Assembly: GCA_023248155.1 (NCBI GenBank)
Contig: JAHFFE010000001.1
Location: 314,603-378,602, forward strand
From: Candidatus Omnitrophota bacterium
GTDB lineage: Bacteria; Omnitrophota; Gorgyraeia; 1-14-0-20-64-10
Direction of reading: 5' to 3'
Length of the DNA: 64,000 bases
The notes beneath the pieces were generated by a model. The model did no database searches, had not been told where the DNA came from, and saw only the letters and a program-made list of their open reading frames with translations. Both the position numbers and the translations under genes were made by a program. Positions 1 through 45,274 of the stretch are shown in pieces. Numbering within the stretch: position 1 is the stretch's first letter; every line of letters starts with the position of its first letter.

Positions 1-60
1 CCGCCCGCCGGACCTGACCAGCAGTTTGAGCGCAGTACGGTTGCCGCCGAATTAATACGG

Positions 61-18101: not shown

Positions 18102-21615
<3,514 letters not shown>

Positions 21616-21895
21616 AAAAACGTTTTATCTGAGCGTTTTCTTTTGCGTTCTGGCGCTGGCTTCAACGGCCGGCGCTGAACAGGCGAGTTCTTCGAAGAGT
21701 AATTTTTCATTCGGAAAGAAAAAACCAGCGGTTGAGCAGTCGACTTCTGCCGCAAAGCCGCTTAAGCCAAAAGCAGTCTCCGAAACGATCACGCATACCC
21801 CAACGGAAGAAACAAATAACGAAACAGTCATTCCACCCGTTGCCACCCAGCCGCTTCAACCCAGGGCTGTTTCAGAGACCATCACCCATACTCCG

Positions 21896-22459
21896 ATGGA
21901 AGAAACCGCCCCCGCTCCAGACGAAGCAATCTTGCTGCCCTCGTATTGGCTTGATGGCGCGCTGCCGTCTGAAGACGATATTGAGGATGGAACCTGGATC
22001 TGGGAACCGGACTATTTTCCGGAAGGAATTATACGCGTTCACTCGCACCCGTCCGGCAAAGGCGTTCACTTTCACGGCTTCCGCAACAGCCCGATCCATA
22101 TGGTGGGGCATCCGATGATTACGCAGGAGGTCTGGCTCGATCCGGCTGATCCGCCGCGCGGCATCATGGTGAAATTTGTCTTAACTTCGGGTGATGAGAT
22201 TGGCGTTTATTGGGAAGGGGAAGAAGAGGTTTTCTTTCCGCTGATCGAAAAAGAAGGCCCGATGGAAATCTGGTATTACGGAATGCTGCCGGAGCTGGGC
22301 AAATGGACGCCGCTGACGATTCTGGCCGAAGACCTGGCGTTGGAAGACCAGGATGTTGTCGGCTTGAAATTCGTCACCTATGACGGCCGCGCATTGTGGG
22401 GCCGCACCAGTGTTTCCGAAGCGCCCGCCCCAGAAGAAAACAATACACCTGTCTCGTAA
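21896..22459 (+). CDS. Hypothetical protein, probably secreted. The frame is open upstream to 21578 and encodes a signal-peptide-like segment but has no ATG/GTG/TTG there.
   Basis: Upstream in-frame translation KTFYLSVFFCVLALASTAGAEQ resembles a Sec signal peptide. It is followed by a diverged tandem repeat AVSETITHTP(T/M)EET x2 and a Trp/Tyr-rich C-terminal domain. Confidence 0.5.
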   Translation: MEETAPAPDEAILLPSYWLDGALPSEDDIEDGTWIWEPDYFPEGIIRVHSHPSGKGVHFHGFRNSPIHMVGHPMITQEVWLDPADPPRGIMVKFVLTSGDEIGVYWEGEEEVFFPLIEKEGPMEIWYYGMLPELGKWTPLTILAEDLALEDQDVVGLKFVTYDGRALWGRTSVSEAPAPEENNTPVS

Positions 22460-22496
22460 AGAGCAACAAGTCTCAGAAAAAAATAATTTTTATCTA

Positions 22497-22525
22497 TTGA
22501 CAAAAAGACGATTATCAGCGATAGT
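22497..22525 (+). promoter_or_regulatory. Candidate sigma-70 promoter upstream of giant gene 1
   Basis: TTGACA-17 nt-GATAGT within a local AT-rich tract. Confidence 0.4.
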
Positions 22526-22637
22526 TCATTTCAAGAGGACTACAACTAGAAAACCAAATCCCTTTCAGGGATTTTATTTTCCAGCGATTCTTTAGCGTTC
22601 AATAAAAGATAAACATATGTCATTGCGAAAGCAGGCT

Positions 22638-22721
22638 GTCATCCTGAGATAACAACGGCATGTCATCCTGAGAGTGTACTTGCTCAGGATCTAAAGATGC
22701 TGAACAGAAAATTTTCAGCAT
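22638..22721 (+). repeat. Double-hairpin element copy 2. A half-site GTCATCCTGAGAT (22638-22650) precedes hairpin 1 ATCCTGAG-N10-CTCAGGAT (22665-22690) and hairpin 2 ATGCTGAA-N9-TTCAGCAT (22697-22721).
   Basis: Hairpin 1 is 27/30 identical to 4367-4396. The 3' arm of hairpin 2 contains the ATG (22720) of giant gene 1. Confidence 0.55.
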
Positions 22722-25700
22722 GACAAAAAATAAATCTATGAGAATAAAAAAATACAATCAAGTTTCCATCGCAACCTTTCTGCTAATCAGCCTGGTCGGG
22801 ACATCCTCCGTTCCGGCCGTCTCTCTTCCTATATATACGTTGCGCCCGCTTGCTTCCGCGCAAAATAAATCCGGTGCCGAAGAACTAACCAATGCCCTTA
22901 AGCGTCAAAATGATTCTAATGCCAATCAACCGCTTACCAACCAGGCCGTTTTAGACAAAGCGCAAGCTGGCCCATTGCTCAGCGAAACCAAAGAGTTGGC
23001 TGACGCCGCTGCGCGTGCCGCACTTGGCATTACTGCTGGCCAGGAGGAGAAGATTGAGCAATTTACTCGCGACAGAATTTTGTTGCGCTTGAACACCGGA
23101 AGGGAAATACCAACAGTTCCATACAAAACCGGGTTTTTGGCCGGTTTAGCCCAGGCCATTGCCGACCCAGGGCTTTCCGGTACCGCTGAGAGTTATTTAG
23201 TTCAGGAACTTCCACCAGGCCTTCGCGATGTGGTTCAGACAACGGCTGATCTAATTGGCAGAAATCGATTTACAAAGATGGACATGAAAGTGGCTCAAAC
23301 CGACACAGGGTCTCCGTTGACTGGTATTGCCGGCGAGACGATCATGGAAATTCTTTACAATGCGTTTTCACGGGGTTTTGGGGTAGGCCTCCCTCTGAGT
23401 GATAAAGGATATACGGCAATAGTCGTCAGCGGTACTCCCGGTTCTGATCTTTCGGTAGTATCCATTCCTGAGATTGGTCCCGATTTTCAAGACAGCCAGT
23501 TTGCCCGTTCATTAGCCAATCATGTTGTTGATCAACAGCCTACCGTTTTGGGAGTTGACCGGAGAGCAAAATACACTCTTTATGAAATAGGAACCGGCAA
23601 CACGGACTATGCGCTTCCAAAATATCTAGCGGGTGAGCAAGGTAGGAGAGGCTCATACCTTTTGCTTCAAATCGATCTGCCCATAAGTTTCGCCGGCGCG
23701 GAAGAGCGTGGGTGGTTTTCTCGCAATAAAGGTTTTTTTGGCATGGTTGCTTTGTCAGTGGCAGTCCTTGGATTTGCTGCTTACCAAATTGCCGGAGACC
23801 AGATTGCGGAACAATATTATCTTTATCGCCATCCTCCTACAGTAAAACAAGCGGCTGTTATGCCGTCCGGGTTGCATGTTCAGCTGCCTCCTGAAATGGC
23901 GGGTAAATATGCGGTGGCTTATCTGGAAACCGACCGTTTTTATCCGCAGGTCATAACACAGGTATCTGCTGACGGGACCGCTGCGTTTCATGTGGAAGTC
24001 CGGCCCCCTAACCGGCCCGGATGGATTGCCGCTCGCGGACGAGTGGTTGCGGTGGTTAATTCCAAGCAAGCGGCGAATGTAGCTTTCAGGGAAATAAAAG
24101 ACCCGTCTGCTTTGAATCGATTAAATCCGGCCGCTGTTTTAACAATTGATTCCGACGGGAAGGTGACTTCTGATAAGGATCCGTTGGGTAATCAAAACGC
24201 CGGGCAGGAAGAATCTGTTGCAACGGCCATTGATCAGCTTGTTTCGAACAGTTTTGGAGCAACCAATGTAATAACTACAGAAATGCTTTTCAATAATTCA
24301 AACGGAATGGTGACTTTCCAGAATTCAAGTTATTACGGGGATCAGACCTATGAATTAACGCTCCGTCCGTGGGTGAGTCTTTTAAGTGATCATCCAGAAG
24401 AGAACGTTGATTTCAGAGTTCGTGTCAGTCTGCAGAGAAAAGATTTCGCAGTTTTATCAGCTGCGGAACGAAAAGCCATGGCCAGCTACGAATTCAGAGT
24501 CAAAGGGTTTCCTTCTGCGGAGTTTCAATCCGGGTGGACAGCGCTTTCGCCTAATCCGCAACCCAAGAACTACTATGATCCTGGCGCGGGTCCTAACACC
24601 CCTCCAGGGTTTGTCATTCCTGCGGGTGCTGATATGGAAACGTGGATACCCATTCCGATAGTCTCGGACGCTTTCAGAGGAGAAAAGCTTGCCGAGTTGC
24701 AGCGACGCGACCCGGCTCAGAGAAGCATAACCATCCAGGTTAGGAAAGCCGGACAGGAAGAGACGGTTGTCGTTGGGCGGATACTTACTTTGCAGGCCGC
24801 GATGGAAAAACTGCGTACATTGTTAGCCGGTTCCAACCATAAACAAATCGTTTTTAATCCAGAGCAAAACGAAAGCTTAATAGAACGTACTGAAACCGCA
24901 TCAGTAAAAGATGTTTCGGATTTAACCGGGCCTGTTCGCCTCATTGGTCAATACTCGCCCAACTTTGATAATGGTCAGGGGGAAGGGCTGGTCGATATCC
25001 GTACCCGAAACGGCATCATTTATGTGAATCCTTTTCCATACAAAGCGGAAGAACTTTCTCTGAAAGTTACGCAGCTGTTTCGAAGAGGCGATATTTTGGT
25101 GGACCAAACTACGGGTGTCCGTCATTTTGAAGTTGCTGACAATCAAGGAAACGCTGTTGATGCTGTTCCTCTGGTTTCAATTATCAACGGATACACAGCT
25201 GATTCTAAGGTGACGCGTGTTCCTGCCGCGGATCTTCGGCTTCGCTACCGCGTGATTCGTGCCGTTGCCGCCGGGGCGGAAGAAAATGTTGAGGAATTGG
25301 CCGCTCGGTTAGGGGATGAGCCAATTAAGGTCGTGGAAACACTTCCTTCCTCTGCTCTTTTGACTGCCGATGCGAAAGCAGATGTGGTCCGTTACTTGCG
25401 GGGAGAGATTGAAGAGGCTGAGCTTCTTGGCATCTTGGACCGCTTAGGAATAGTGGAGATTCAGTCAGGCGGCAATTTCATGAACCAGGCGGAGCTCATT
25501 CGCGCCGCGGCGAAAGAGCGGGCCTTGGTGGAGAGAGCGATTGCGGAAGACCGTTTGGGAGAGTTTATTCCTATTGCCGATGGGAAATCCGCGGCTGTGG
25601 TGGAAGTGGATGTCGTCTCGAGTCTGCCAAAGGTTTATCTGCAGAATGGTTTGTCTTCGCCGGTTGCCGCGCCCGATGACATAGCGATCATTCCTTTAAG

Positions 25701-26025
25701 CGGCGATATTGCGGAAGTTTCTGATCAGTGGTTGAATGGGGCAGGTTCTGAGTCCGATCTGGTTATTTTGAATAACCAGCTGGATGGCGTGGCCGCTATG
25801 CCAGGTTCCTGGCTTCCGGCGGTAGCTCCAAGGCCAGCCGCGGTCCGCATGAGCCCGGTAACCTCGACGGAGCTTTTTTCAGGCGACGCCATTCAGGTGG
25901 GCCGCAACTTGCGCGCTATGGCGGCGCTCTCTCTGGCAGTGCACGGAGTACCGGATATGGATATAAACGGAATTACCTTTGTTGATCTGGCCGGAAAAAC
26001 CTATGCGGTTATTACCTCTGCCTAA
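22720..26025 (+). CDS. Giant secreted protein, AG-x-EE motif family member 1 (1101 aa)
   Basis: Signal peptide. Six AG(A/Q)EE-type motifs. A GDILVD...ADLRLR module shared with member 2. A conserved C-terminal module ending DLAGKTYAVITSA. Confidence 0.8.
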   Translation: MTKNKSMRIKKYNQVSIATFLLISLVGTSSVPAVSLPIYTLRPLASAQNKSGAEELTNALKRQNDSNANQPLTNQAVLDKAQAGPLLSETKELADAAARAALGITAGQEEKIEQFTRDRILLRLNTGREIPTVPYKTGFLAGLAQAIADPGLSGTAESYLVQELPPGLRDVVQTTADLIGRNRFTKMDMKVAQTDTGSPLTGIAGETIMEILYNAFSRGFGVGLPLSDKGYTAIVVSGTPGSDLSVVSIPEIGPDFQDSQFARSLANHVVDQQPTVLGVDRRAKYTLYEIGTGNTDYALPKYLAGEQGRRGSYLLLQIDLPISFAGAEERGWFSRNKGFFGMVALSVAVLGFAAYQIAGDQIAEQYYLYRHPPTVKQAAVMPSGLHVQLPPEMAGKYAVAYLETDRFYPQVITQVSADGTAAFHVEVRPPNRPGWIAARGRVVAVVNSKQAANVAFREIKDPSALNRLNPAAVLTIDSDGKVTSDKDPLGNQNAGQEESVATAIDQLVSNSFGATNVITTEMLFNNSNGMVTFQNSSYYGDQTYELTLRPWVSLLSDHPEENVDFRVRVSLQRKDFAVLSAAERKAMASYEFRVKGFPSAEFQSGWTALSPNPQPKNYYDPGAGPNTPPGFVIPAGADMETWIPIPIVSDAFRGEKLAELQRRDPAQRSITIQVRKAGQEETVVVGRILTLQAAMEKLRTLLAGSNHKQIVFNPEQNESLIERTETASVKDVSDLTGPVRLIGQYSPNFDNGQGEGLVDIRTRNGIIYVNPFPYKAEELSLKVTQLFRRGDILVDQTTGVRHFEVADNQGNAVDAVPLVSIINGYTADSKVTRVPAADLRLRYRVIRAVAAGAEENVEELAARLGDEPIKVVETLPSSALLTADAKADVVRYLRGEIEEAELLGILDRLGIVEIQSGGNFMNQAELIRAAAKERALVERAIAEDRLGEFIPIADGKSAAVVEVDVVSSLPKVYLQNGLSSPVAAPDDIAIIPLSGDIAEVSDQWLNGAGSESDLVILNNQLDGVAAMPGSWLPAVAPRPAAVRMSPVTSTELFSGDAIQVGRNLRAMAALSLAVHGVPDMDINGITFVDLAGKTYAVITSA

Positions 26026-26065
26026 AATCAATCGTTAGTAGTAGAAAACTTCGCCGTTATTTTTA

Positions 26066-26096
26066 TTGACAAAAATAACAACCCCAGCGCTATAAT
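26066..26096 (+). promoter_or_regulatory. Sigma-70 promoter for giant gene 2
   Basis: TTGACA-19 nt-TATAAT. Followed about 25 nt later by CAGCGGTCTTTTTTT, which resembles a block downstream of the member 3 promoter. Confidence 0.55.
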
Positions 26097-26215
26097 GGCA
26101 AATAACCTTGAATTTCGCAGCGGTCTTTTTTTGTCCGTCATTTTTTACAGATTTAGATAAGATCTGAGACAGCTTTTATGAACCCATATAAAAACTCGGC
26201 CAGATAAAGGAAAAA

Positions 26216-29200
26216 GTGATGCGGACAAATTTAAACCAGTTCCTGGCCGCCCTGCTTCTCGTTGGTCTCTCTTTCGCGAATATTTCTCCCGTCCCTCAGC
26301 TGTTCATGGTGAGTTTATCGAACCATACTCTGCGTGCCGTTGGTTTAGAGGAAGGCACCCAAAAGAATTCTTTATCTGACGCTTTAAAAAATAATGCCTC
26401 CGGATTAGAGGAAGCGGTTGTTTTGGACGCGTCGGTTCCTTATCAATATCCCTGGCGGACTGCCGAATTCGACGAGCTTTGGCCAAATGCCGATGATCGT
26501 GATCCCAAGCTGGAACGCTTTCAAAGATTGTTCAACCAGGATTTGGACGGCCATCCGGAAGGGGAGATTCAGCTCACATCGCCCAACGGAAACCCCGATG
26601 AGTTGGCCCGCTGGATTGCTGAAAACAATATGACTCCGCAGCGGGTTGCCGAAAGCATTGAATGGATCCATAAGATGCACCCCTACGATAAGGAACGGTT
26701 TATCTCTCTTCAGCAGTTGCCCAGCATTCAGGCGTTTCTTGCCGCTCATCCGGAAGCCCGTTTCAATTTAATCGGCGTCCGCGAAGATGAGAGCAAGGTC
26801 GGTTCCTTCAAAATCGGCCAGTATATGGATGAATATCTGCAGAAGATCCTCAAAGCCGGCCATCGAGGAGATGTAAATTTCCCGGGCGCCGTGATGTACT
26901 CCTCGGGAAACGCCATTCAGGGAGATGTCGAGACATTGGCCTGGCTCAAAGAGCAGGGGTTGGTTCCGCAAGATTTCAAGATCACAATGGTGGCAATGGC
27001 TTACCTGAAACCCAAAAAGCGGAAAATGATCGAGGATTTTAAAAAGCGGGGATTGGTTGACCGAATTGTTACCCCCGAAGAAATTGCCGCCGAGTATCTT
27101 GCCGATTCAGAGGGGGGCAGCGTACCGGTTCAGCATCAGGACTTGGCGGTTGATCCCGTGGCGTTGGATGACATCAATCAGGTTTTGAAACTTTTGGATT
27201 GGTGGTCGGAGAAACAGGGCCGGGCCCATATTTACGCTTCCAACAGCTTAAGCGCCGTCGTGGGCGGGGCCAGAATCTACTACGATATTAATCGGGCATT
27301 TACGCAGGATCGTGAATACCTGCAAGCGTTGTTGGGGGATGCCGCCGAAACTTTGCCGGCTCAGCCCGATGGTATTGTCATGCCTGCCGCGGGCGGCGGA
27401 CCGTTCGGGGGAATACCGTTTTGGGCGCGCCAGCTTGGGCATGCCACCAAAACCATCGGACCGATCCCCACCATCCGGACCGGCAGCATCGCGGAAGGTC
27501 TGGGCATTCAGATGATTCAGGAACTCGCGCGCAATCTGGCCCGTTTATTGGGAGTAAATCAGATGCAGCTTACCGAGGTATCTGAGCGGGCTATTCTAAA
27601 AGCGTTTGTGGAACTGCATGACGCCGGAATTGAAGTGGAGCCCAGCTCTGCCATCGCCTACGCGCAGGTGCTGTACCTGATGGAAAACAAACCTGAATTT
27701 TTCTCTCAATTTTTGGCTGAGAACGGCCGGCCGATGACGCTGGTGGCCATATTAACCGGGCGCAATTTTGAACCATCGGATGCCGCCTGGGCTTGGGCGA
27801 AGGTTCAAGAGCTTCGCCTGAAGGAGCCCCATGCCCTCAGAGCCGATCCAACCCAAAGGCAGGCGGCCGTTCCTCCGGCGAATGGGCTGCAGCAGGTTGT
27901 CGTTTTGAGTTCAGGCACCGAGCAGGCAATGGGCAGAGCGCTGCGCCAGGCGGTAATCGATTGGCGCGCGTCCCAGCCGGCAAATCTGAAACCAACCGTA
28001 ACGGCTGTCTACAATCCTCCCAAAGATCTGGATTGGCTTAAAAAGATAAAACCGGATGTCATTCTTGTGGCGGCTACTGCCGAAGAAGCCCAGCAGGATG
28101 GTTTACTAAGGAATGCCATCACAGTTCTTGGCGATGCCGGCGTTCTCATTCGTTATGTTCCTTTCCCCAGCAAGGTAGCAAGATCTTTGAATCCGCTGGC
28201 AAAATCTCTGCCAGGGAAGCTTCTAAAAATCGGCGAGCTGTTTCAGGGAGGGGATATTTTGGTGGATTCGACAACCTCCAAGCCCCGTTTTCGGGTAGTT
28301 GCCGACCAAGCAAACACCATCAGCGCTGTTTCTCTCCAACCAATTGATGAGCAGGGCAATTCCGCGGGGCCGGAAACCGCTGTCCCCGTCGCGGATCTAC
28401 GCCTGCGTTTTCAAGTGGTTCGCGCCGGCTTAGAGGAGCAATTGCTCACCGTTACGGTTCCTCCAAGCCAGCCGGTTTGGCTCACGGCGGCAGATGGAAT
28501 CCAATTGCTGGAACGGTTGCTGCAAGAAGGGGAGTCCCGCTCGATTTACTCTGTTAAGCACGGGGCTGATTTTCTTGTGCCTCGTTACAGAGCGGTAGTT
28601 TCAAAAGAGGGAGGTGTCATTAAAGTCCGAACAGTCGGTAAATTTTCGATGTCACTTGAGTTCGTCATGACGCGCGTCGAGGGTTATTTTATCGTGAAGC
28701 CGGATGGAAACATCTTCGTTATTGATGCCGAAGATGGAAACCAGAGAGCGAATATTTATTTGCGCAAGAATTTTTCGACTATTTCCGTTGATTCTCTCGC
28801 GCCTGCCGCTGTCGAGGGCTGGGTTCAGCGACCTTCCGCGGAAGAAGCGGCGGCCTATATCCGGGAGCTTGTTCCACAAGGCGTTTCTGCTGTTCAAATG
28901 GGAGACGCTGAACATTCTCCGGAATCTGACCGTTTGGTTGATGATCTCACTCAGTTTCAGGGGGGAGCTGGCAGCGGCCGGATTTTCTATTTGAGAAGGT
29001 CCAACCAAAATGTAGAGGTGTTGGCGATCACTGCGATGGATTTTGACGCCAGATCCATTGGGGAGTTCCATCAATTGCCGATGGGTGAGTTGTTGAAGAA
29101 GATCGCTCAGCTGGGAGCGAACTGGTTCGTCCAGGTCGGTTTTTCGAATTCGGCAGCGCGGGTATATGCGACAGACACCTCTGGTTTGCAGAGACTTTTG

Positions 29201-31267
29201 CGTGGATATCCCAATACGACGGGTTTCTACGCCCTGTCCCTTCGCGCAAATCAGACTGCTTTCGTGAGCAACAGCTCGAATCCCAATTCTTCCGGATTGG
29301 AGGAAGATTTTCGAGATGCTTTCTCGGATGGGATGGCCGCTCAGCATTATTTGGACCAATTGGCGGGTTTTGCCGATATTGTTTTATTGAATCAAACCCA
29401 AGAGGCTTTGGGTAGAGTCGACGCCCATTCAAGGGATTATCTGGATCCGAAGGGAATTTATCCTTCCACCAGAGAAATTATTCCCAAGTACGCTCAAGCC
29501 AATCCTGTCGAATTAGACAGTGCTCATCGCGAACGGTTGAAAGAATTTCTTTTTTCGGTTTGGGAGAACGAGCGCCGTATGCGGAACGAACCGCAAGGTT
29601 CTGCTCGAACAGGCAGGCCAGTGGTTGATGTGGAGTCAGCCATGCTTCCTGAACTCATAGAGCAGGGACGTGCTGCTCAGCGGCTGGCGTTGTCTGGCGG
29701 GCTGGAAGAGCGGGTGAATCTTTTGGTTATTCGGGATTCTAATGACGCGGCAACCAAACAAGCGCTGCTAGGTATCGTTCCTGGCTGGGCTAAAACAAAA
29801 GCTTCGCAGGAAATCGATGTGGTTTCTTACGGCACCCTGGATAAGGGGCTTGCCGCCTCGCCTAAGAAAGGCCGATGGAGCGGGATCCTGATGTTGCGGC
29901 ATGTTGCGACTGAAGCCGATGTCGATGAGATTGAGCGCCAGATTACCGGCCTTAAGCCCGTTTCGGATTCTGCGGCGATACCGGTTGCGCTGATCGTCTA
30001 CGCGTCGGACCAAAAAGTATACGAAAAACGGTTGCTGGGTTCGCTGCAACTCCTCAAAGGAAGCCAGGGTATCGTCACATTTTTTGTTCATCGTTTATGG
30101 CAAGACAAACCTGCTTCTCAGCCCGCCGTCGCGGATTCACCGGAACCCACAGCGAAACCGGCAGTGCCGCCGGCAGGAGTCTTCACGGGAGTTCTGGATC
30201 AATTGCTGGACTCCGCGGCTAAGTACGCTGTGGCTGTCGGTCTGGAAGAGCGGGGAGCGCTGCTTCCCGATGTTTTCTTTCGGCGTCCAGGGTTCCAGTT
30301 CCTTATGGAAATGGGAAGAGCAAAAATCCTGCCGGCGGATTTCGATGTCCGGGATAAATCTCTTCAGGTTCGAATCGGCCGGATCGTAGGCCGCTGGGGG
30401 TTCAGCCGTTGGCTGGAAGAACTCCCGCTGGCAAAGGTTCTTGAGAATAGCCCCAATGGGCACAATGACCTGGCCGCGGTGGAAGCGTTTATTGCAAGGG
30501 CACAAAATATTCCGCCGGATTATTTTGGGATAGCGGCAGGAACCACCCAGTGGTCGCCCAAGAAGACGCCTTCTTGGCCGGCGGTTCAGCCATTAGTGAT
30601 CGAGGCGGTAGCGGGTGCTCGTCAAAATAAAAATTTCGAATTACAGTACACCCCTGCTGCGGTAAGCGAATCGGATGTGACTGATCAAAGCGACGGTAAA
30701 ACCTACCATCATGTTGAAATAGTTTCGCCTCCGAAAATTCAGCTTCTTCCTGCCGCCGGGCTGGAGGAATGGACCGTTTCCGATCTGTTCTTGCGCGAAG
30801 TGGTTACCACGCACAATTTTTACACGCGATTTGCGCAAGAAGACGGTTCCCAGCTGATTGTGGTGCCGATGGGACAGAATAAAGTTAAGCCGGCGAATCT
30901 TTATTTGCAGGAGGGGCTTGAGAATCCCATTTCGCGCCTGGTTCCAAACCCTGTTCGTCTGGGAAGAGAAAAGGAGGACGTTCGGGGGCTCTTCCGCCAA
31001 AACCCCGCGGGTCCCAACGATGTCATTGTTCTCAACTCCGATATAGTGAGGGGTGATCCGTTGTCCTGGTTTTCAGCGGGCGGCGCGAATACTCAATATA
31101 AGGTGCGTATTTCACCGGCGTTAGCCATGAAATTCAACAATGATCTGGATACCCGATTCATGGAAGTGGTCGCGTTGGCCGCGCGGGTGGGTAATGGAAT
31201 GTTATTGCTGGACTACACGTATCAGGCGGTGGATGACCAGGTGTACTTGATCCTGCGCTCCGCGTAA
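26216..31267 (+). CDS. Giant secreted protein, AG-x-EE motif family member 2 (1683 aa). The N-terminal domain resembles a fold-type-II PLP enzyme.
   Basis: Seven GLEE motifs. A GSFKIG lysine motif, an AAGGGPFGG glycine loop and GIEVEPSSAIAYA recall threonine synthase/TrpB-family enzymes. The C-terminus ends YLILRSA. Confidence 0.8.
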   Translation: MMRTNLNQFLAALLLVGLSFANISPVPQLFMVSLSNHTLRAVGLEEGTQKNSLSDALKNNASGLEEAVVLDASVPYQYPWRTAEFDELWPNADDRDPKLERFQRLFNQDLDGHPEGEIQLTSPNGNPDELARWIAENNMTPQRVAESIEWIHKMHPYDKERFISLQQLPSIQAFLAAHPEARFNLIGVREDESKVGSFKIGQYMDEYLQKILKAGHRGDVNFPGAVMYSSGNAIQGDVETLAWLKEQGLVPQDFKITMVAMAYLKPKKRKMIEDFKKRGLVDRIVTPEEIAAEYLADSEGGSVPVQHQDLAVDPVALDDINQVLKLLDWWSEKQGRAHIYASNSLSAVVGGARIYYDINRAFTQDREYLQALLGDAAETLPAQPDGIVMPAAGGGPFGGIPFWARQLGHATKTIGPIPTIRTGSIAEGLGIQMIQELARNLARLLGVNQMQLTEVSERAILKAFVELHDAGIEVEPSSAIAYAQVLYLMENKPEFFSQFLAENGRPMTLVAILTGRNFEPSDAAWAWAKVQELRLKEPHALRADPTQRQAAVPPANGLQQVVVLSSGTEQAMGRALRQAVIDWRASQPANLKPTVTAVYNPPKDLDWLKKIKPDVILVAATAEEAQQDGLLRNAITVLGDAGVLIRYVPFPSKVARSLNPLAKSLPGKLLKIGELFQGGDILVDSTTSKPRFRVVADQANTISAVSLQPIDEQGNSAGPETAVPVADLRLRFQVVRAGLEEQLLTVTVPPSQPVWLTAADGIQLLERLLQEGESRSIYSVKHGADFLVPRYRAVVSKEGGVIKVRTVGKFSMSLEFVMTRVEGYFIVKPDGNIFVIDAEDGNQRANIYLRKNFSTISVDSLAPAAVEGWVQRPSAEEAAAYIRELVPQGVSAVQMGDAEHSPESDRLVDDLTQFQGGAGSGRIFYLRRSNQNVEVLAITAMDFDARSIGEFHQLPMGELLKKIAQLGANWFVQVGFSNSAARVYATDTSGLQRLLRGYPNTTGFYALSLRANQTAFVSNSSNPNSSGLEEDFRDAFSDGMAAQHYLDQLAGFADIVLLNQTQEALGRVDAHSRDYLDPKGIYPSTREIIPKYAQANPVELDSAHRERLKEFLFSVWENERRMRNEPQGSARTGRPVVDVESAMLPELIEQGRAAQRLALSGGLEERVNLLVIRDSNDAATKQALLGIVPGWAKTKASQEIDVVSYGTLDKGLAASPKKGRWSGILMLRHVATEADVDEIERQITGLKPVSDSAAIPVALIVYASDQKVYEKRLLGSLQLLKGSQGIVTFFVHRLWQDKPASQPAVADSPEPTAKPAVPPAGVFTGVLDQLLDSAAKYAVAVGLEERGALLPDVFFRRPGFQFLMEMGRAKILPADFDVRDKSLQVRIGRIVGRWGFSRWLEELPLAKVLENSPNGHNDLAAVEAFIARAQNIPPDYFGIAAGTTQWSPKKTPSWPAVQPLVIEAVAGARQNKNFELQYTPAAVSESDVTDQSDGKTYHHVEIVSPPKIQLLPAAGLEEWTVSDLFLREVVTTHNFYTRFAQEDGSQLIVVPMGQNKVKPANLYLQEGLENPISRLVPNPVRLGREKEDVRGLFRQNPAGPNDVIVLNSDIVRGDPLSWFSAGGANTQYKVRISPALAMKFNNDLDTRFMEVVALAARVGNGMLLLDYTYQAVDDQVYLILRSA

Positions 31268-31313
31268 AGGCCCATTGAAAATGTTAGTCGTAGAAAGTTT
31301 CATGATTTAAATG

Positions 31314-31343
31314 TTGACATTTTTGCACTTTCTCAGGTATAAT
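31314..31343 (+). promoter_or_regulatory. Sigma-70 promoter for giant genes 3-5
   Basis: TTGACA-18 nt-TATAAT. A weak hairpin plus GGCTCTTTTTT lies about 35 nt downstream. Confidence 0.6.
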
Positions 31344-31453
31344 TTTCACAATACGCTGGTTTTGTCTTCCAAGCCAGCGGCTCTTTTTTACCCTGCATTT
31401 TTACTTATTTTGGATAACTTAAACAAAGCAAACATTCGGGAGGAATACAAGTA

Positions 31454-34400
31454 ATGCGATTTGATTTCCTGCGCTCAATCTCGGTGGTAGTCCTGTCTGT
31501 TTTTTCTCTGTCGTCTGTTTCTCCTGCATTTGCTCTGCGTGCCGCCGGCTTAGAGGAAAACGCGGAAAAGGGTACGGTCACCAGGAGGCTTCTTGAGGGC
31601 AACCGCGGAAATTTTTCGGGCGGTCTGCAGAAAAACTCCACCTCCGGTCTGGAAGAGATCCGGATCCTGCTGGTGGCGGTTTCTGACGAAGCTCTCGCTA
31701 AAAAAATGGGAGAGATGGCACAGGCCTGGCGTTCGGAGTTGGACGTAAGAATTGTTCACACTGCAGACGAGGCTCAGGTTTATCTGAAAGCGCAGCAAAA
31801 TCCAAGGCCGGATGCGGTCATCTGGGAATTATCCACAATGGGAACCGAGACGCTCATAGATCCAAGCCAGCTTTCTTTCAATGTACCCGTGGCTCTGGTA
31901 GGCGAGGGGGCGATGGGCGTGGTTGGAGAATGGATCGCATTGTTCAACAACCGTCCCGTTCCTGCCCCTTTTCAGGAGACTCTTCAACAAAAAGCCAAGA
32001 AGGATGGGTTTTCGAGAACTGCTCGCTTGTTATTTGGTGATGATCTAGTAAACAGGCGGCCCCTGCGGCTCCTGAGGGGAACTGAAAATTATGAGTTATC
32101 TGCTTTCACGCATAATCTGGACATACTGAATAGGGATTTCAGGAGCCGTTCCGCTGGGCTGGAGGAGGCGTGGGATCGCGACACCGCGGACAGTTGGACG
32201 ATTTTAAGTGGTACAGTTTCCACCCAACTTATCCAGCAGTTGCTTCAACAAACTCCCGCGCCGGCAATCACCGATCTGGGCAATTTTTACTGGACCAAGG
32301 GAACGCTTTCACAATTGACTCCCGGCATGGTGAATAACATTTTGAATGTTGCACCGTCGCGTCACCTATTGGCAATCTCGAATGGACAGGTTGCCTTGAT
32401 TCGTCAGGGAGAATTGGAATCGGCCGACCAGGACGGTGCGAAAGATGCAACCAATTGGTATGGGAAATTGGCGACACGCGCCGAGACAGTGCTGACTCCT
32501 CAGCATTTACAATCCGCCGGCTTGGAGGAAACGCCCGCGCAAGTCATCGCCAAGCAAAAAGCGATGGCAGTCATTGCAGTTCCCAGTGTTCAAGTTGCTG
32601 CCGGTATCGGTGCAGTGGTTGCGTACAAGGGAATAATTCCCGAAATTACATTTCGGGGGAATGAAGCCGATGTTTTGCAGGCGATCAATGCACTTTTCGG
32701 TCTGTCGTCGAGCAAGCGAATGCCGGTAGCGGCCGGATCTGTATTGACGGCCGATCAGGTGGAGAAAGCTGTACGGGCGGGTGCTAAGATTATCGTCAGC
32801 CCCGGCTTGATTGATGAAGTTATTCTCAAGGCCCAGGAATTGGGAGTTTTGGTAATCCCAGGCGTGGCATCGATGTCTGAGGCAAAAACAGCGGTCGAGG
32901 TTTACGGCCTTTCACTGTTGAAATTTTTCCCATTCTCTTTTGTCGATCAGGCTGATTTTATCAAATCAATCAAAGCGCCATTGCCGCCAAATCTTCAGGC
33001 CGTGGTGGACGCTAAGGTAACATGGGGAGATTCCGGAGAAGTCGCCACATTTACAAAAATTCTTGAATTTGTCCTGAGTAATCCGACAGCATCAAAGCAA
33101 TTCCAGCTTCCCAAGAAAAAAGGATTGGAAGCGCTTCATCAATTGGGCGTGAATCCGGCAGTTGCCAATGCGCAGTTTATTCCAACCGGTGGTATTACGC
33201 CGGAGATGATCCCGCAGTTGATAGGGAAGGAAAAGATCGTCGCGGTAGGTTTATCCATCGGCGGAGATAATCCGGCGGTTCTTGCGAAAGCCGATGCTAT
33301 TGCGAAAGCGGTTGCGCAGATTGCTGGTGCCGAGGAGGGAGTGGTTGCCGTTGTTGCATCGGAAGATAATTTTCAGGCAGTCGCTGGTTATGTGCGTAAG
33401 TATGCGATTGGGCAGGGCAGAAAAGCCCCTCAAATGGTTCACCAGCATTTTGATGATGCTCGGCAGAATGCCAGTCGCGGTTTTGTGACTGCCATCGTGG
33501 CGATTTTTCCAAGCGCGGATGCTGATCAAATTGCGTGGATCGAAAGAACCAAAGAACTTGCTCCTAACGTTCCAATCGCCGTGATTTATTCCGGCAATGG
33601 AAACGAGGTTCGCCGCGTCTCAACTAAAGCACTGAGCAGTAGAGAGTTGAGCCAAGATGCGGTTGGTGAAATGGTTTTCTCCCTGCTTCCCACCGCTGGT
33701 GCGGAAGAATCAACCGTGCTTCTTCCAACCCCGCAAAACTCGTTTCCTGCAAGTCGAGGAGCTGTCTCTCCGGACGGGGATTCACTATTAGCGTTGAAAG
33801 AGACACCGGAGGTTCGCTGGGCAACGATGGTGGGCCGTACGGAAGGGTTTTCTTCGGGGCGATCTTCCGACGGTTTGGTTCACGCGCAGGGATTGGTGGA
33901 TCGTCTGGAGATCAAAGCCGGATTTACAACTGGCATTGAAAATGAACTGAATATTGTCGAATCGTATCGAGCTGGGCAATATACGCTGGCGATTCTCGGA
34001 GCACCCGTTGCTACAAGCGCTAGGCCGATTATCCAAGGTTTTAAGTATGAGGTTACAGGTGCTCCTGGGGTTAATCGCGTACTGACACTTTCCGTTGATC
34101 AAAACGCTGTTTCCCCTAAGGTAATAAATAATCTTGTCGCTCAAAATTTACCATCAGGCAGCCCAAAACCGTTGACGGTTGTTATCGAAGCCGCCGCTGG
34201 TCTCGAAGAGACGGTTTACACGGGCATTGACCAGGTTGTAGCGGCGATTACTCAACCTGAAGGCGAAGACAGCATCCGGGCTCTTGTCTACTCTCTTCCG
34301 GATGGAACAGAACAACGCGCGGTTCTTGCCCCAGGTGAATGGACTCCTGCGCAGGCGGTTCCCGGTGCTTTTCAAGCAATGGAACTCCGTCCTGTTTCCG

Positions 34401-37225
34401 GCAGGGTAACAATTACTATTAGTGGAAGCGATGTTGTTCTCCGCAAAGCGCCTGAGGAGCCAGTAATTGTTGCTCCGGTTAAGACTGCTGTGAAACTTCC
34501 GTTGACGGCGCGGCTGGCCAATATGTTTGGCGTATTCCGTTTCTCGGTGGACGCCACGGACAACATCAGCAATGAATTTGTTGATTATGTCGGTTCTGTG
34601 GGTGGTGATAAAGGGACGCTGAACCCATCCTCTGTCGGGAAATCCGCGGAGACCGGGCAGATGAATTCGTTGGTTCGTGAATTTGTTTCTTCTACGGTAA
34701 GAGGCGCGAATCTGCTCTGGCAATTGGTCAAGCGGCATGTCAGCGCGGTTTTCCTTCCCCGCGTGGAGACCAGTGTTGAATTGGATCCAACCGTTCCCTC
34801 GGTTTACGCGTTGACATTGGATGGTAAAAATCCTGTGGTTGTCAAAAAGAGCGAGGAAATCGTTGTTGACGAGATCGCTGTTGTTGTTGACAAGATCGTT
34901 GTTAAGGAAGAGTTCCAGGCCATTGTCGGCAAGAAGACCTTGAAGCCGGGCGAAAAACTGACGCCCGCGCAGGCGCGTCAGGTCCATAGCTTAATGGTTC
35001 GGCAATGGGTGGCGCAGGCGCTCGAAATCCATCGGCTGGGTGACAAAGCGACGGTAAAAATCGGCCACACGAAGTCGTTGACGCCCATCATGGGCGATTG
35101 GGGCGTGCGCGTTGGGCTGGATGTGCTGCATATTTTGTCGGTGCTGGGCATTCACCGCAACTTCACGCTGGGTTTTACCGAAGAAGATGCCAATCTGGCA
35201 TTGCAGGCCGACCGCGTCGTGCAGGCGGAGCTGGACGCGGTGAAAACATTGGATCTTCAGACAGTTTCTGCGGACCAGGTCATTTCCGCGCTGGACGCGC
35301 TCTATACGCCGGAGATTCGAGGGGATTTCAAGAATGACCCTTTGCCGCTGGGTCTCTTAGACAAAACTTCTCCGGTCATTCTTCCGGGCCAGCGCGCGGC
35401 CAAGGGCTACCGTCCGGCCGGGCGTTCTTATTTCAGTTTGTTCGCAAGCCGGGTCGATGCCAAGGTGAACAGCGCTGAATGGAAGGGAGAGTTTACCGAC
35501 GATCAGCAGAAATATTTTGGCATCGTGAACTTGCTGTATGTCATGGTGACGCATTACAACGATCAGGTTCCCTGGAATAAAGCCCATGGTCAGGTCGTGA
35601 TTCCGGCCAGTTTGGAGCCGAAAGTGGCCGGTCAGCCGGGTGATTTCTACTTTACTCCGCTGGTGGGTTGGGGGTATCAGGTTGTGCCGACCGCCTCTAA
35701 AAAAGTGATCGACGCGTTTAATGCTCGGACAGTGACCGATGAAATTACCGGTCAAGAGCGAGAGCTCAGTGAGGCGGAGCTATATGAAATCGCAATGCGG
35801 ACCCAGAGAATGAAGCAGGACTACGCGGATAAATTGGCCGCGCAAGGGCCGTTGTCTCCGGTCATTGATCAGGCCGCGGCGATCGATGTAATTGCCAAGC
35901 GTTTCGTGCAGGAAGGGTTTTACGCTGATTTTGACACGGCCCGCGCTGTGGTTGAGAGCATCGTTACGTACAGGCAGAATAATCCGCAGGGCTACGACAA
36001 AATGATGAACCAGTTGTATCCCGAGGGGGATGATAAATTTACCGGCCCGCATCTGCTCGGTGTTCAGAGCGTGAACCAGAAAATTGAGGTGGTGGCTGCC
36101 AACCGGCAGAGCGCGCAATTGGTTGGTACGCTTCGGGAAATCAACTATGTTCCCACGAGAATCCTCAATGAAACAGGCAGCCAAACGGTGCTTGATAACT
36201 TAACGGATGTCGCTAATTTGTTGGAAAGCGACGATTCCGCTGTTGTAGCGTTGAGTCTGGCTGAAAATTTGTTGATTGTTCGTACCGGCAAAGTGGAAAG
36301 CATCGCTCTTGCGCAGGCCGATCTGTCGGCTTTGTTGTCTCTTGCGGGACCATTGGCTCCGCTGAAAGTTGCTGCACAACAAAGAGCGGAAGCAGAAGCC
36401 AAAACCGCTCTGCAGAACGCGTTTGGAACTTTACCGTTGGATACCGCCGGCACGCGTGTTTATTCCGGCCCGGCCGCTCTGCGCCAGTTGTCGGAACTGT
36501 TTTCCGGAGATGTGGCGGTGATTGGGGCCAGATACGAAGAAGGGAACCCGGCGTCGGTTATTACTACCCCGCGGAACACGGCCCGTCTTTCTGTGAGCGC
36601 TAATCCGAACAACTATCTGGTGATTCAAGCTCCTTCCGGCCAGTTAGCGCTTGTGCGCAAAGAGGAATTGGAATCCAAGGATAGGAGAGCTACAGCTGAG
36701 GCGGCTGCTAGAGCTAAAACCGCTGTTCCGGGTACCGGTGGCGAGGTTATCGCCCCGGTTGCGCCGACATTGCTGGAGCGGATCGTTGCCAAAGTGGGTG
36801 TTCCGATCACTGCAACGGTTGTCAAACTCGATGAAAAGCAACTGGATCTTCCGTCCAGGCTATGGCTGCACAATGGTTTGTTGCAGCCGAGCTTCATTGC
36901 TAGGGAACAGATTACCGATCTCCCGGCTGACAAAGCGGGTGTTGTGGCTGTCTGGTCTGGCAAGCAGGCCCAGATTCAATCCACCGACCTGGTTCTACTC
37001 AACGCCAACACGGTTCCTTCGGCGGAAGTAGATCAGTGGCTGGTAGGATTGCCCGCGGATCGCAAACCGGTTGTTTTACGGCTTTCAAACAATGACATTA
37101 ATATCGCCAGGAATCAGAATATTTTGGCTGCGTTAATCGAGATTGCCCGGCAACAGGGCGGGTATCTGGATGTCATCGGTATGACCTACGATCCGGCTAC
37201 GCAGGTGTTGTCGGTCCAGGCTTAA
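31454..37225 (+). CDS. Giant secreted protein, AG-x-EE motif family member 3 (1923 aa). It has receiver-like, KDPG-aldolase-like and transaldolase-like domains.
   Basis: Signal peptide plus an ALRAAGLEE box. Seven motifs, all in the N-terminal ~900 aa. Eda-like motifs (PVAAGSVLTADQVEKAVRAGAKIIVSPG...IPGVASMSEAK...LLKFFPFS...FIPTGGITPEM) and transaldolase-like motifs (VKIGHTKSL...GIHRNFTLGFT...SYFSLFASRVD). Confidence 0.8.
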   Translation: MRFDFLRSISVVVLSVFSLSSVSPAFALRAAGLEENAEKGTVTRRLLEGNRGNFSGGLQKNSTSGLEEIRILLVAVSDEALAKKMGEMAQAWRSELDVRIVHTADEAQVYLKAQQNPRPDAVIWELSTMGTETLIDPSQLSFNVPVALVGEGAMGVVGEWIALFNNRPVPAPFQETLQQKAKKDGFSRTARLLFGDDLVNRRPLRLLRGTENYELSAFTHNLDILNRDFRSRSAGLEEAWDRDTADSWTILSGTVSTQLIQQLLQQTPAPAITDLGNFYWTKGTLSQLTPGMVNNILNVAPSRHLLAISNGQVALIRQGELESADQDGAKDATNWYGKLATRAETVLTPQHLQSAGLEETPAQVIAKQKAMAVIAVPSVQVAAGIGAVVAYKGIIPEITFRGNEADVLQAINALFGLSSSKRMPVAAGSVLTADQVEKAVRAGAKIIVSPGLIDEVILKAQELGVLVIPGVASMSEAKTAVEVYGLSLLKFFPFSFVDQADFIKSIKAPLPPNLQAVVDAKVTWGDSGEVATFTKILEFVLSNPTASKQFQLPKKKGLEALHQLGVNPAVANAQFIPTGGITPEMIPQLIGKEKIVAVGLSIGGDNPAVLAKADAIAKAVAQIAGAEEGVVAVVASEDNFQAVAGYVRKYAIGQGRKAPQMVHQHFDDARQNASRGFVTAIVAIFPSADADQIAWIERTKELAPNVPIAVIYSGNGNEVRRVSTKALSSRELSQDAVGEMVFSLLPTAGAEESTVLLPTPQNSFPASRGAVSPDGDSLLALKETPEVRWATMVGRTEGFSSGRSSDGLVHAQGLVDRLEIKAGFTTGIENELNIVESYRAGQYTLAILGAPVATSARPIIQGFKYEVTGAPGVNRVLTLSVDQNAVSPKVINNLVAQNLPSGSPKPLTVVIEAAAGLEETVYTGIDQVVAAITQPEGEDSIRALVYSLPDGTEQRAVLAPGEWTPAQAVPGAFQAMELRPVSGRVTITISGSDVVLRKAPEEPVIVAPVKTAVKLPLTARLANMFGVFRFSVDATDNISNEFVDYVGSVGGDKGTLNPSSVGKSAETGQMNSLVREFVSSTVRGANLLWQLVKRHVSAVFLPRVETSVELDPTVPSVYALTLDGKNPVVVKKSEEIVVDEIAVVVDKIVVKEEFQAIVGKKTLKPGEKLTPAQARQVHSLMVRQWVAQALEIHRLGDKATVKIGHTKSLTPIMGDWGVRVGLDVLHILSVLGIHRNFTLGFTEEDANLALQADRVVQAELDAVKTLDLQTVSADQVISALDALYTPEIRGDFKNDPLPLGLLDKTSPVILPGQRAAKGYRPAGRSYFSLFASRVDAKVNSAEWKGEFTDDQQKYFGIVNLLYVMVTHYNDQVPWNKAHGQVVIPASLEPKVAGQPGDFYFTPLVGWGYQVVPTASKKVIDAFNARTVTDEITGQERELSEAELYEIAMRTQRMKQDYADKLAAQGPLSPVIDQAAAIDVIAKRFVQEGFYADFDTARAVVESIVTYRQNNPQGYDKMMNQLYPEGDDKFTGPHLLGVQSVNQKIEVVAANRQSAQLVGTLREINYVPTRILNETGSQTVLDNLTDVANLLESDDSAVVALSLAENLLIVRTGKVESIALAQADLSALLSLAGPLAPLKVAAQQRAEAEAKTALQNAFGTLPLDTAGTRVYSGPAALRQLSELFSGDVAVIGARYEEGNPASVITTPRNTARLSVSANPNNYLVIQAPSGQLALVRKEELESKDRRATAEAAARAKTAVPGTGGEVIAPVAPTLLERIVAKVGVPITATVVKLDEKQLDLPSRLWLHNGLLQPSFIAREQITDLPADKAGVVAVWSGKQAQIQSTDLVLLNANTVPSAEVDQWLVGLPADRKPVVLRLSNNDINIARNQNILAALIEIARQQGGYLDVIGMTYDPATQVLSVQA

Positions 37226-45000: not shown

Positions 45001-45177
45001 CTCGATCCGCAGATTCCGGTTTTAATCATGGGAGAAATGGCCGCGCAAAACTGGAATAAAGATTCGCTCGCTTACCTGGTGACGCTGGCTGCTCATTCCC
45101 GCGGAATTTTGTTTATCCGCCAGATTACTTATCCGACGGTAAACGAACGGGAGTTTGTCGCTATCCGGTTCGTCTAA
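42061..45177 (+). CDS. Giant secreted protein, AG-x-EE motif family member 5 (1038 aa)
   Basis: Signal peptide plus an ALRGAGAEE box. Four motifs. A FWELQQ module shared with member 4. The conserved C-terminal module begins VVILNSNLL. Confidence 0.8.
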   Translation: MKKTDWFKISGFLGLALLLAVPAPVYALRGAGAEESLEKTDLTRALSRAGNRGYLKRAAGLEETPWTIIGRGEGTPVAMALDDSGDALVLSRIAAGELRLQRISPAGKAEPITPVPSLAVPMPPGSGGDPANPSAASVFAILPFRDQVLVTDGGQQFYPIEISSLGQTVPDLQSAAKPVPLANVSRIDQMIVRPSDGMLIIVDKQGDDAASKSNSIVRLFDVKQMPPVVREAVGVGEPVVTAPAVARNRLYLAQSFPLSPAAAVPAGTGTQTQREIRIRGFNISNGGDGSVETLRIQGPKTFVRSDVAGLAAGLVDGKPFLFSLESRQRKGPGVEAAQPLRLAVYSLENQAQVGFFDLPANVRQITYDSKNSQVLLAAGGAPESNSYQITAAPVAQLIPAVQQRPVSGSGLEEAPQPPPAQRTQGIHSRLARIFIEGVLARYTPSGNENSDFTVKYFGETEDESLLFNPELFLGVVRKSQVSHHVWVNVNPATKIIEVHPVQIREELKKPVILLDSQNTVNFILNAALPEPVLGVAYREAGHLQVLSGALLGNASLLPRILQMVNISQTILFLKEPFEIPANSDAEQSAQKGFLLRLAYVPSQRSLRAVAWRTIDQFVQEFSGFAKAGQASVLYYHTPAGVYLLEGPENLQNADFLRAAAEQVASGSYVLASKEGADGKEFHLYAPEFAGLEETAVAENALPSISSRPVISSPSGFSTTVAGPVFPAYSAVISAAGNGPSASANSVSSLAVSVSSPLNAPAVIEPVTGERAPEPVVFSTVEEVIAYLNALPDDQPVIVGGVEIPSLRDTLFPVKLDELARNNPGQNFLIRPAGPGAVLRVDLQAPVRTLSATELFGDTTAVSVRFDLAEASDAMIAAQIAQANKLGQPVQISRSGEFAAVFEKTPTLSPSVLYIQDDLDLPQDMSESDGTVDVRRIPADPELAQEFWELQQTLLPGSVVILNSNLLANQRLDPRQWLPANLDPQIPVLIMGEMAAQNWNKDSLAYLVTLAAHSRGILFIRQITYPTVNEREFVAIRFV

Positions 45178-45274
45178 TCATCCTCGCAGTGGTTAATCAA
45201 AATATAGTCTTTGATATTCTGTATTGATTTTTAATAAGCTCATTGGGTATAGTTCGTATATAGACACAAAAACA

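Follow-up and report, generated by a model that had tools for sequence, protein, structure and literature searches.

Giant protein 2 (G2) is encoded by the second of six co-oriented large open reading frames (ORFs; giants G1-G6) in a 64,000-nucleotide stretch of the genome of a Candidatus Omnitrophota bacterium (assembly GCA_023248155.1, contig JAHFFE010000001.1, positions 314,603 to 378,602; hereafter, the window). Residues ~67-549 of G2 (window ~26417-27862) form a folded module that is, with near certainty, homologous to the fold-type II enzymes dependent on pyridoxal phosphate (PLP), and that retains their cofactor site. The likely explanation of the evidence as a whole is a genuine, highly divergent, exported fold-type II PLP enzyme module of the Ser/Thr-dehydratase/serine-racemase branch. 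An earlier reading of the sequence (the original prediction) had proposed such a domain from three motif blocks, GSFKIGQ, AAGGGPFGG and GIEVEPSSAIAYA, and all three are present in the G2 ORF in canonical order. Two further hallmark blocks, SSGN (residues 229-232) and LTGRN (residues 513-517), had been overlooked. Feature coordinates are collected in Table 1, and residue numbers of G2 start at the GTG codon at 26216.

Homology of the G2 module to fold-type II PLP enzymes

The proposed PLP domain was recovered by profile searches. The Pfam profile PALP (PF00291) matched whole G2 at E = 3.5e-8 (33.6 bits; residues 377-485, aligned to the profile's C-terminal half) and the excised module at E = 7e-9 (35.8 bits, cut-off 35), a match that is marginal by Pfam's own cut-off and clear by E-value. 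As the whole-protein match covered only the C-terminal half of the profile, the homology of the lysine block was initially left open. PALP was matched by 10 of 15 homologues (best E = 6.5e-11), and in two of these, P0009 (profile positions 34-275) and P0007 (24-275), the alignment takes in the lysine region.

An alignment of the module from 15 proteins was run as a family profile against the sequences of the Protein Data Bank (PDB). Each of the best 20 matches was a fold-type II PLP enzyme; tomato threonine deaminase (3IAU, E = 1.7e-8) ranked first, ahead of rat serine racemase (3HMK, E = 3e-8). Single-sequence searches of the PDB with phmmer found no match for the first 595 residues of G2, and for residues 319-515 gave matches only at E = 0.4-1.2, all of them to fold-type II enzymes.

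The PDB profile alignment places K199 on K56 of serine racemase and on the SFK lysine of 3IAU, with the family sequence G-S-F-K-I-R-Q set against GSFKIRGA of serine racemase. GSFKIGQ is thus the lysine block it had been taken for, and both the PALP match and the conserved lysine were found. The S-S-G-N-A-I-Q-G stretch is aligned to SSGNHGQ of serine racemase (S83-S84-G85-N86). AAGGGP (residues 391-396) is aligned to the GGGG loop (VPVGGGGM) of serine racemase and threonine deaminase, which agrees with the assignment of AAGGGPFGG as the glycine loop. V-E-P-S-S is aligned to IEPTAG, and L-S/T-G-x-N to LSGGN. T514, within LTGRN, is the predicted contact for the cofactor pyridine nitrogen (N1); the corresponding serine of the LSGGN block in serine racemase is the N1 contact S313.

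The spacing of the blocks departs from that of known enzymes. K199 and N232 are 33 residues apart, against 30 residues between lysine and asparagine in serine racemase, and the distance from lysine to glycine loop is 194 residues against ~130 (~64 extra). Extra helices also precede the core. The interval 26700-27700, to which the domain had originally been assigned, holds the catalytic core and leaves the N-terminal extension and the ILTGRNF block outside. That extension bears the family motif F-x-R-L-F...EG, and a Pfam search of it returned only a chance-level match to WCX (E = 0.083).

Threonine dehydratase, threonine synthase and TrpB had all been named as relatives, of which only the first kinship was sustained. 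The NCBIfam models matched most often were threonine ammonia-lyases. Threonine synthase gave only marginal matches (NCBIfam E = 0.026-0.17 over ~40 residues, the G2 module itself at 0.026-0.04; PDB 1uim, E = 0.062), a TrpB-like model was matched by one of 15 homologues (E = 0.039), and TrpB had no entry among the listed PDB sequence or fold matches. At every level, Ser/Thr dehydratases and serine/aspartate racemases are nearer to the module than threonine synthase or TrpB.

Predicted structure

AlphaFold modelling of the module from the single sequence gave a predicted local distance difference test (pLDDT) score of 40.6; with the 15-sequence alignment, the pLDDT was 87.8 and the predicted template-modelling score (pTM) 0.88. 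The predicted two-domain alpha/beta fold is of the tryptophan-synthase-beta type. Four helices and a hairpin stand ahead of the core strands that lead into the lysine block. The model is disordered over its first 5 and its last 27 residues, which are exactly the stretches with the GLEE delimiter and ANGLQQ described below; the stretch of the second delimiter has a pLDDT < 50.

Comparison of the model with the PDB by Foldseek produced 411 matches at E < 1e-3, the best of which was 3IAU (E = 2.5e-15). The best 50 of the 411, whose target TM-scores lie between 0.65 and 0.77, consist entirely of fold-type II enzymes and include the threonine deaminases 3IAU, 8ZKV, 8Y1J, 1TDJ (IlvA) and 2GN0 (TdcB) as well as serine racemases, an aspartate racemase, a D-serine dehydratase and a serine dehydratase. 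The identity of the module to solved enzymes in these comparisons is ~14-19%.

Distribution and conservation of the module

A word-indexed protein search with residues 40-600 found no relatives. Among 1.84 billion cluster representatives, an exhaustive HMMER search picked out 15 proteins, G2 itself (P0001) included, and the module is accordingly rare. The closer relatives share 84%, 73%, 48%, 40%, 36% and 35% identity, and the distant ones (27-35%) lie within proteins that can be as long as 7,416 aa. All homologues with a named organism belong to Candidatus Omnitrophota/Omnitrophica (MDO8730022.1, PIQ81901.1 and MFT5206367.1), and a genome scan with a 4-sequence alignment recovered two loci, the first in a metagenome-assembled genome (MAG) of Omnitrophota and the second in a MAG that carries the label Planctomycetia. 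The homologues likewise point to Omnitrophota as the probable source of the window. Judged from these sequences, the module is a distinct clade, so far confined to Omnitrophota wherever the organism is named. Public records call the named homologues 'hypothetical protein', 'LpqB family beta-propeller domain-containing protein' or 'Bud32', and none of these names refers to a PLP-like domain.

The cofactor residues are strongly conserved. In a column-by-column table, K199 was kept in 14/14 homologues covering the column and the S(S/T)GN loop likewise in 14/14, the glycine loop in 12/13, and the glutamate of the GIEVEPSSAIAYA block in 12/12. Of 12 homologues covering the L(S/T)GxN block, 11 have it in this form and P0015 reads ASGGN, so that S or T occupies the N1-contact position in all 12. 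Key cofactor residues are kept down to 25% identity.

Two homologues support the autonomy of the module: P0008, a stand-alone 506-aa version without signal sequence, and P0006, a minimal version made up of signal, leader, module and short tail. The PLP-like module is the sole part of G2 common to P0003, P0004, P0005 and P0007, in which it starts at residues ~523, 387, 28 and 770, respectively. In P0010, it is followed by a PGM/PMM-like module.

Delimiters and modular architecture

The original prediction described the modules of G2 as bounded by AG-x-EE motifs. Such delimiters are real, in the somewhat different form (A/S)G(L/A/Q)EE, of which there are 36 canonical copies in the six giants (window 22873-45874); those of G2 are at 26342, 26402, 28427, 29294, 29699, 30239 and 30758. 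GLEE alone was observed 16 times against 0.22 expected, and each delimiter variant is expected less than once by chance. No in-frame copies occur in the window outside the giant genes. A DNA-level repeat was considered as the origin of the delimiters and rejected, since their codons vary among copies.

A delimiter stands directly before the PLP-like module in G2, P0002, P0003, P0005, P0006 and P0007, and the second delimiter of G2 shares alignment columns with those of P0002, P0005, P0006 and P0007. Directly after the module, P0004-P0007 carry AGQEE, AGLEG, AGLEE and AGLEA in the same columns as ANGLQQ of G2, and in both G2 and P0002 these C-terminal columns hold a decayed (N/K)GLQQ. Relatives use AGVEE, AGQEE or AGLEA as delimiter. 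In the 7,416-aa P0010, the module is bounded by (A/G)ARL(A/S) at residues 4218 and 4804, a motif that recurs 18 times in that protein.

The collinearity of G2 with P0002 breaks at RAGLEE (residues 736-741), and the ~340-residue difference between the two proteins corresponds to two delimiter-bounded modules. As read from these alignments, modules are gained or lost exactly at delimiter sites. Residues 60-740, originally proposed as the range for a domain search, do include the PLP-like module but hold two modules, the first of which ends at ~549. Pfam matched none of the six other modules of G2, and the PLP-like module is the first and sole recognisable cargo module of the protein.

The module that follows the PLP-like one (residues 561-737, 27896-28426) has no Pfam match, and its C-terminal part is 42% identical to residues 769-857 of G1, within a G1 region spanning residues ~678-857 (24751-25290). 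By eye, it has a strand-helix-like start (VVVLSSGTEQ...), as does the fifth module at residues 1167-1341 (VNLLVIRDS...), and similar stretches are seen in P0002 and P0004.

A parallel to enzyme-like domains in G3 and G6 had also been drawn. It holds for G3, in which signal and delimiters are arranged as in G2 and are followed by two enzyme-like domains, a KDPG/KHG-aldolase domain at residues 364-510 (E = 1.5e-21) and a transaldolase-like domain at residues 1182-1457 (E = 1.2e-7). For G6, the ROK match is weak (E = 0.026).

A search of the window for a protease acting at the delimiters found only a housekeeping ClpP and an RseP-type M50 protease that sits in a conserved uppS-cdsA-dxr-rseP-ispG cluster, and yielded no candidate. 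A crude literature search for the delimiter strings returned nothing relevant, and the delimiter system appears to be undescribed. A role of the delimiters as processing sites is conceivable, and is advanced here tentatively.

Predicted export signal and cysteine depletion

The N-terminus of G2 has a charged n-region followed by a hydrophobic core, residues 8-27, which a Kyte-Doolittle scan found to be the only hydrophobic segment in the 1,683 aa. This accords with the signal peptide that had been placed ahead of the module, and motif reading suggests a possible cleavage site (SFA|N) after residue 21. The six giants and the full-length homologues all start with a charged, hydrophobic N-terminus, usually followed by A-x-A-L-R and the first delimiter. 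Export by the twin-arginine (Tat) route was rejected, as the N-termini, read by eye, lack an RR motif.

Not one cysteine occurs in the 8,166 aa of the six giants, whereas the remaining 28 ORFs of the window have 79 in 11,118 aa (0.71%; binomial P = 5e-26). Cysteine is also very scarce in the long homologues (2 in 7,416 aa; 1 in 3,943 aa), and the signal-less, stand-alone P0008 has 5 in 506 aa (~1%). Bacteria that avoid disulfide chemistry are known to exclude cysteine from their exported proteins, and its absence here is an argument for an extracytoplasmic location that does not depend on the signal sequence.

Nearly all full-length members end alike: the window proteins in ...ITSA, ...LRSA, ...SVQA, ...LRSA and ...FTSA (e.g., 31244-31264), and the homologues in LVQA, IMQA, FRSA, EQSA, LRAA or ITAA. 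Residues 1512-1683 of G2 and 1436-1604 of G4 are 28% identical. The similar C-termini may reflect a terminal module that these proteins have in common, or else a sorting signal at the chain end.

Comparison with known systems

The closest solved relatives are enzymes of the Ser/Thr-dehydratase/serine-racemase branch (3IAU, 2GN0, rat and human serine racemase 3HMK and 3L6B, and Escherichia coli IlvA 1TDJ), which have the same fold as the module and the same cofactor blocks in the same order (S-F-K, S-S-G-N, glycine loop, E-P, L-S/T-G-x-N). The module differs from them in its low identity (14-19%), its N-terminal helical extension and the ~64 extra residues between lysine and glycine loop. It also lacks a regulatory ACT-like domain, and it is one of several modules in a protein that begins with a signal sequence.

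There is precedent for periplasmic PLP enzymes, in that BsrV of Vibrio cholerae (PMC7890096) and Alr of Pseudomonas putida (PMC6034422) are broad-spectrum, PLP-dependent amino-acid racemases that are exported by signal peptides and act in the periplasm. Both are single-domain proteins not homologous to the module, and the parallel is one of location only. BsrV and Alr have the alanine-racemase fold (fold-type III), and an exported fold-type II PLP enzyme would be unusual in itself.

Omnitrophota are uncultured, mostly host-dependent ultra-small bacteria, and their giant ORFs have been described as having few annotated domains and being poorly understood (Seymour et al., PMC10066038). Domains homologous to glycolytic enzymes were reported in predicted extracellular regions of Omnitrophota giant proteins by West-Roberts et al. 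(10.1101/2023.11.21.568195), who suggested proteolytic processing and described the cleavage points as unknown. A 2026 preprint (10.64898/2026.06.07.730766) catalogues sugar-metabolism modules and long proteins with a signal peptide only. By term search, the word 'pyridoxal' is absent from both preprints, and words beginning 'cleav' or 'linker' are absent from the second. G2 resembles these Omnitrophota proteins in being long, in its N-terminal signal, and in having an enzyme-like domain in a predicted extracytoplasmic region. The giants of the literature reach tens of thousands of aa, whereas G1-G6 range from 817 to 1,923 aa and G2 has no internal transmembrane helices. G2 fits the class of Omnitrophota long modular proteins with embedded enzyme domains, and its PLP-like module is a new addition to this known phenomenon.

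An apparently intact PLP enzyme in an Omnitrophota long protein, missed by standard annotation, offers a biochemical handle on these proteins. Its exact boundaries, stand-alone relatives and cysteine-free hosts make both extracellular action and cutting into enzymes testable.

Proposed function and alternative explanations

In the proposed mechanism, K199 would hold PLP as an internal aldimine and the module would catalyse an alpha/beta reaction on a small amino acid, for example deamination by beta-elimination, or racemisation, with a substrate resembling serine or threonine; from its relatives, the default expectation is that a small hydroxy-amino acid is deaminated or racemised. The module is probably a working enzyme. 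It would work outside the cytoplasm, a location considered somewhat less secure than activity itself, and suggested because G2 has a Sec-type signal sequence and no other hydrophobic segment, and because neither it nor its five neighbours contain cysteine.

Several observations weigh against an active, exported enzyme of this branch. The PALP score of whole G2 falls just below the gathering cut-off of 35, and no curated NCBIfam threshold was reached, the best score of G2 being 14.2 bits against a cut-off of 421 (IlvA, NF006390); among homologues the best E-value was 4.5e-7, and all scores were far below the curated cut-offs. On the substrate side, SFKxRQ-F/Y stands in place of the dehydratase SFKxRG-A, and A-S-N-S...G-G-A in place of P-F-D...G-Q-G-T, and this replacement leaves the reaction type open. 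The glycine loop of P0005 is degenerate. The case for export is drawn from a hydrophobicity scan, motif reading and cysteine depletion, and a Sec-exported PLP enzyme must take up its cofactor outside the cytoplasm.

The alternative that survives best is a pseudoenzyme, in which the PLP fold has been kept as a ligand-binding, regulatory or structural unit of a surface or scaffold protein that carries out no catalysis. Such a unit could account for the extreme divergence (~15-19% identity to solved enzymes), the curated subfamily scores far below threshold, the altered substrate-side motifs, the degenerate phosphate loop in P0005, and the absence of enzyme signatures from the six other G2 modules. 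It is nevertheless judged unlikely, as the retention of the lysine, SSGN, the glycine loop (12/13) and a Ser/Thr at the N1 contact among proteins only 25-35% identical would hardly be expected unless selection had acted on cofactor chemistry.

PLP enzymes are overwhelmingly cytoplasmic, and the N-terminal hydrophobic stretch could instead anchor a metabolic multi-enzyme protein to the inner face of the membrane, with the module in the cytoplasm. Many Omnitrophota long proteins are read as membrane-anchored on the cytoplasmic face (10.64898/2026.06.07.730766), and West-Roberts et al. warn that extracellular glycolytic domains could be a topology error (10.1101/2023.11.21.568195). With a lone N-terminal hydrophobic segment after positive charge, however, most of the protein is predicted to cross the membrane, be the segment cleaved or not. 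The positive-inside rule underlies this topology prediction for G2. Taken with the complete lack of cysteine in 8,166 residues, against ~1% in the signal-less homologue P0008, it renders the cytoplasmic placement improbable, slightly more so than the pseudoenzyme.

A threonine-synthase-like or TrpB-like enzyme, catalysing beta-replacement or gamma-elimination, has in its favour the weak matches already mentioned (NCBIfam at E = 0.026-0.1, 1uim, and the TrpB-like model in one homologue). The strong matches, by sequence and by fold, all fall on Ser/Thr dehydratases and on serine, aspartate and D-serine enzymes, and the family GSFK(I/R)RQ is much closer to GSFKIRGA of serine racemase, making this assignment very unlikely. 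The motifs are short, yet their chance co-occurrence in an unrelated protein was rejected as having a negligible probability, being already refuted by E-values of 1e-8 to 1e-15 from three independent methods and by the two further canonical blocks.

Beyond the divergent, exported enzyme module favoured here, a broader and more doubtful proposal is that the six tandem genes encode Sec-exported, cysteine-free enzyme polyproteins, in which PLP enzyme, KDPG aldolase and transaldolase modules would be released, or swapped in evolution, at lineage-specific delimiters. If so, the cleavage points described as unknown in the literature on Omnitrophota giant proteins would be these delimiters, and Omnitrophota would place enzymes of amino-acid and sugar-phosphate metabolism in the envelope or at the host interface.

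Gene G2 and its genomic context

The ORF of G2 (26216..31267, + strand) has 1,683 codons counted from the GTG at 26216, the length given in the original prediction. The true start is probably the ATG at 26219, giving 1,682 aa, because the public protein P0001 (1,682 aa) is identical from this ATG and an AAGGA lies ~8 nt upstream of it (read by eye).

Table 1. Features of the G2 gene, its PLP-like module and the six giant ORFs (window coordinates; residues of G2 counted from GTG 26216).
Feature	Coordinates	Residues	Strand	Basis or remark
Promoter-like site 5' of G2	TTGACA 26066-26071; TATAAT 26091-26096		+	19-nt spacer; read from sequence
G2 gene	26219..31267		+	ORF list, translation, identical public protein P0001
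Signal-peptide-like N-terminus	26219..26278		+	Charged n-region, hydrophobic core residues 8-27
First delimiter, AVGLEE	26336..26353	GLEE 43-46	+	
Second delimiter, ASGLEE	26396..26413	61-66	+	Directly 5' of PLP-like module
N-terminal, mostly helical extension	26417..26692	~68-159	+	AlphaFold model; conserved across homologues
Canonical fold-type II PLP core	26693..27862	~160-549	+	PALP, PDB profile search, AlphaFold (pLDDT 87.8), Foldseek
GSFKIGQ	26801-26821	196-202	+	Lysine block
Codon AAA, predicted Schiff-base lysine	26810..26812	Lys199	+	Alignment to solved enzymes
SSGNAIQG, 'asparagine loop' (S229-S230-G231-N232)	26900-26923	229-236	+	
AAGGGPFGG, predicted phosphate-binding glycine loop	27386-27412	391-399	+	
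GIEVEPSSAIAYA block	27626-27664	471-483	+	Aligned to LIEPTAGVGLA of serine racemase
ILTGRNF block	27749-27769	512-518	+	Aligned to VLSGGNV of serine racemase
Degenerate delimiter, ANGLQQ	27878..27895	555-560	+	C-terminal module boundary
Canonical delimiter, RAGLEE	28421..28438	736-741	+	End of second module
G1	22720-26025			Giant ORF
G2	26216-31267			Giant ORF
G3	31454-37225			Giant ORF
G4	37242-42056			Giant ORF
G5	42061-45177			Giant ORF
G6	45224-47677			Giant ORF

The G+C content of the six giants is ~0.51, below that of their flanks (~0.56). Upstream lie the housekeeping genes tig, clpP, a class-V aminotransferase gene, serA, purA and an H+-PPase gene; downstream are genes for a ROK kinase and an OmpA-family protein, followed by uppS, cdsA, dxr, rseP, ispG, proS, nusA and infB.

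The promoter-like site upstream of G2 is not in the list produced by the promoter scanner, which accepts spacers of 16-18 nt only. The regions upstream of G1 (22460-22722), G2 (26026-26221) and G3 (31268-31456) are paralogous, each with a strong sigma-70-like promoter. The G3 site at 31314-31343 scores 12/12 and is followed in the leader by a hairpin and T-run at 31354-31379. An Rfam scan of 21600-32000 matched no family.

Starch-synthase and GT4/GT1 glycosyltransferase domains make up part of the 1,014-aa protein encoded by the first ORF of the window (61-3105), a domain class that is among the sugar-metabolism modules of Omnitrophota long proteins (10.64898/2026.06.07.730766). The most distant long homologues of the PLP-like module (P0009, P0010 and P0013) have, by eye, a common N-terminal region with the motif (I/L)IQD(A/V)H(T/L)N. 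Their N-termini are unrelated to those of the window giants, and these proteins carry protein-kinase, methyltransferase or PGM-like modules.

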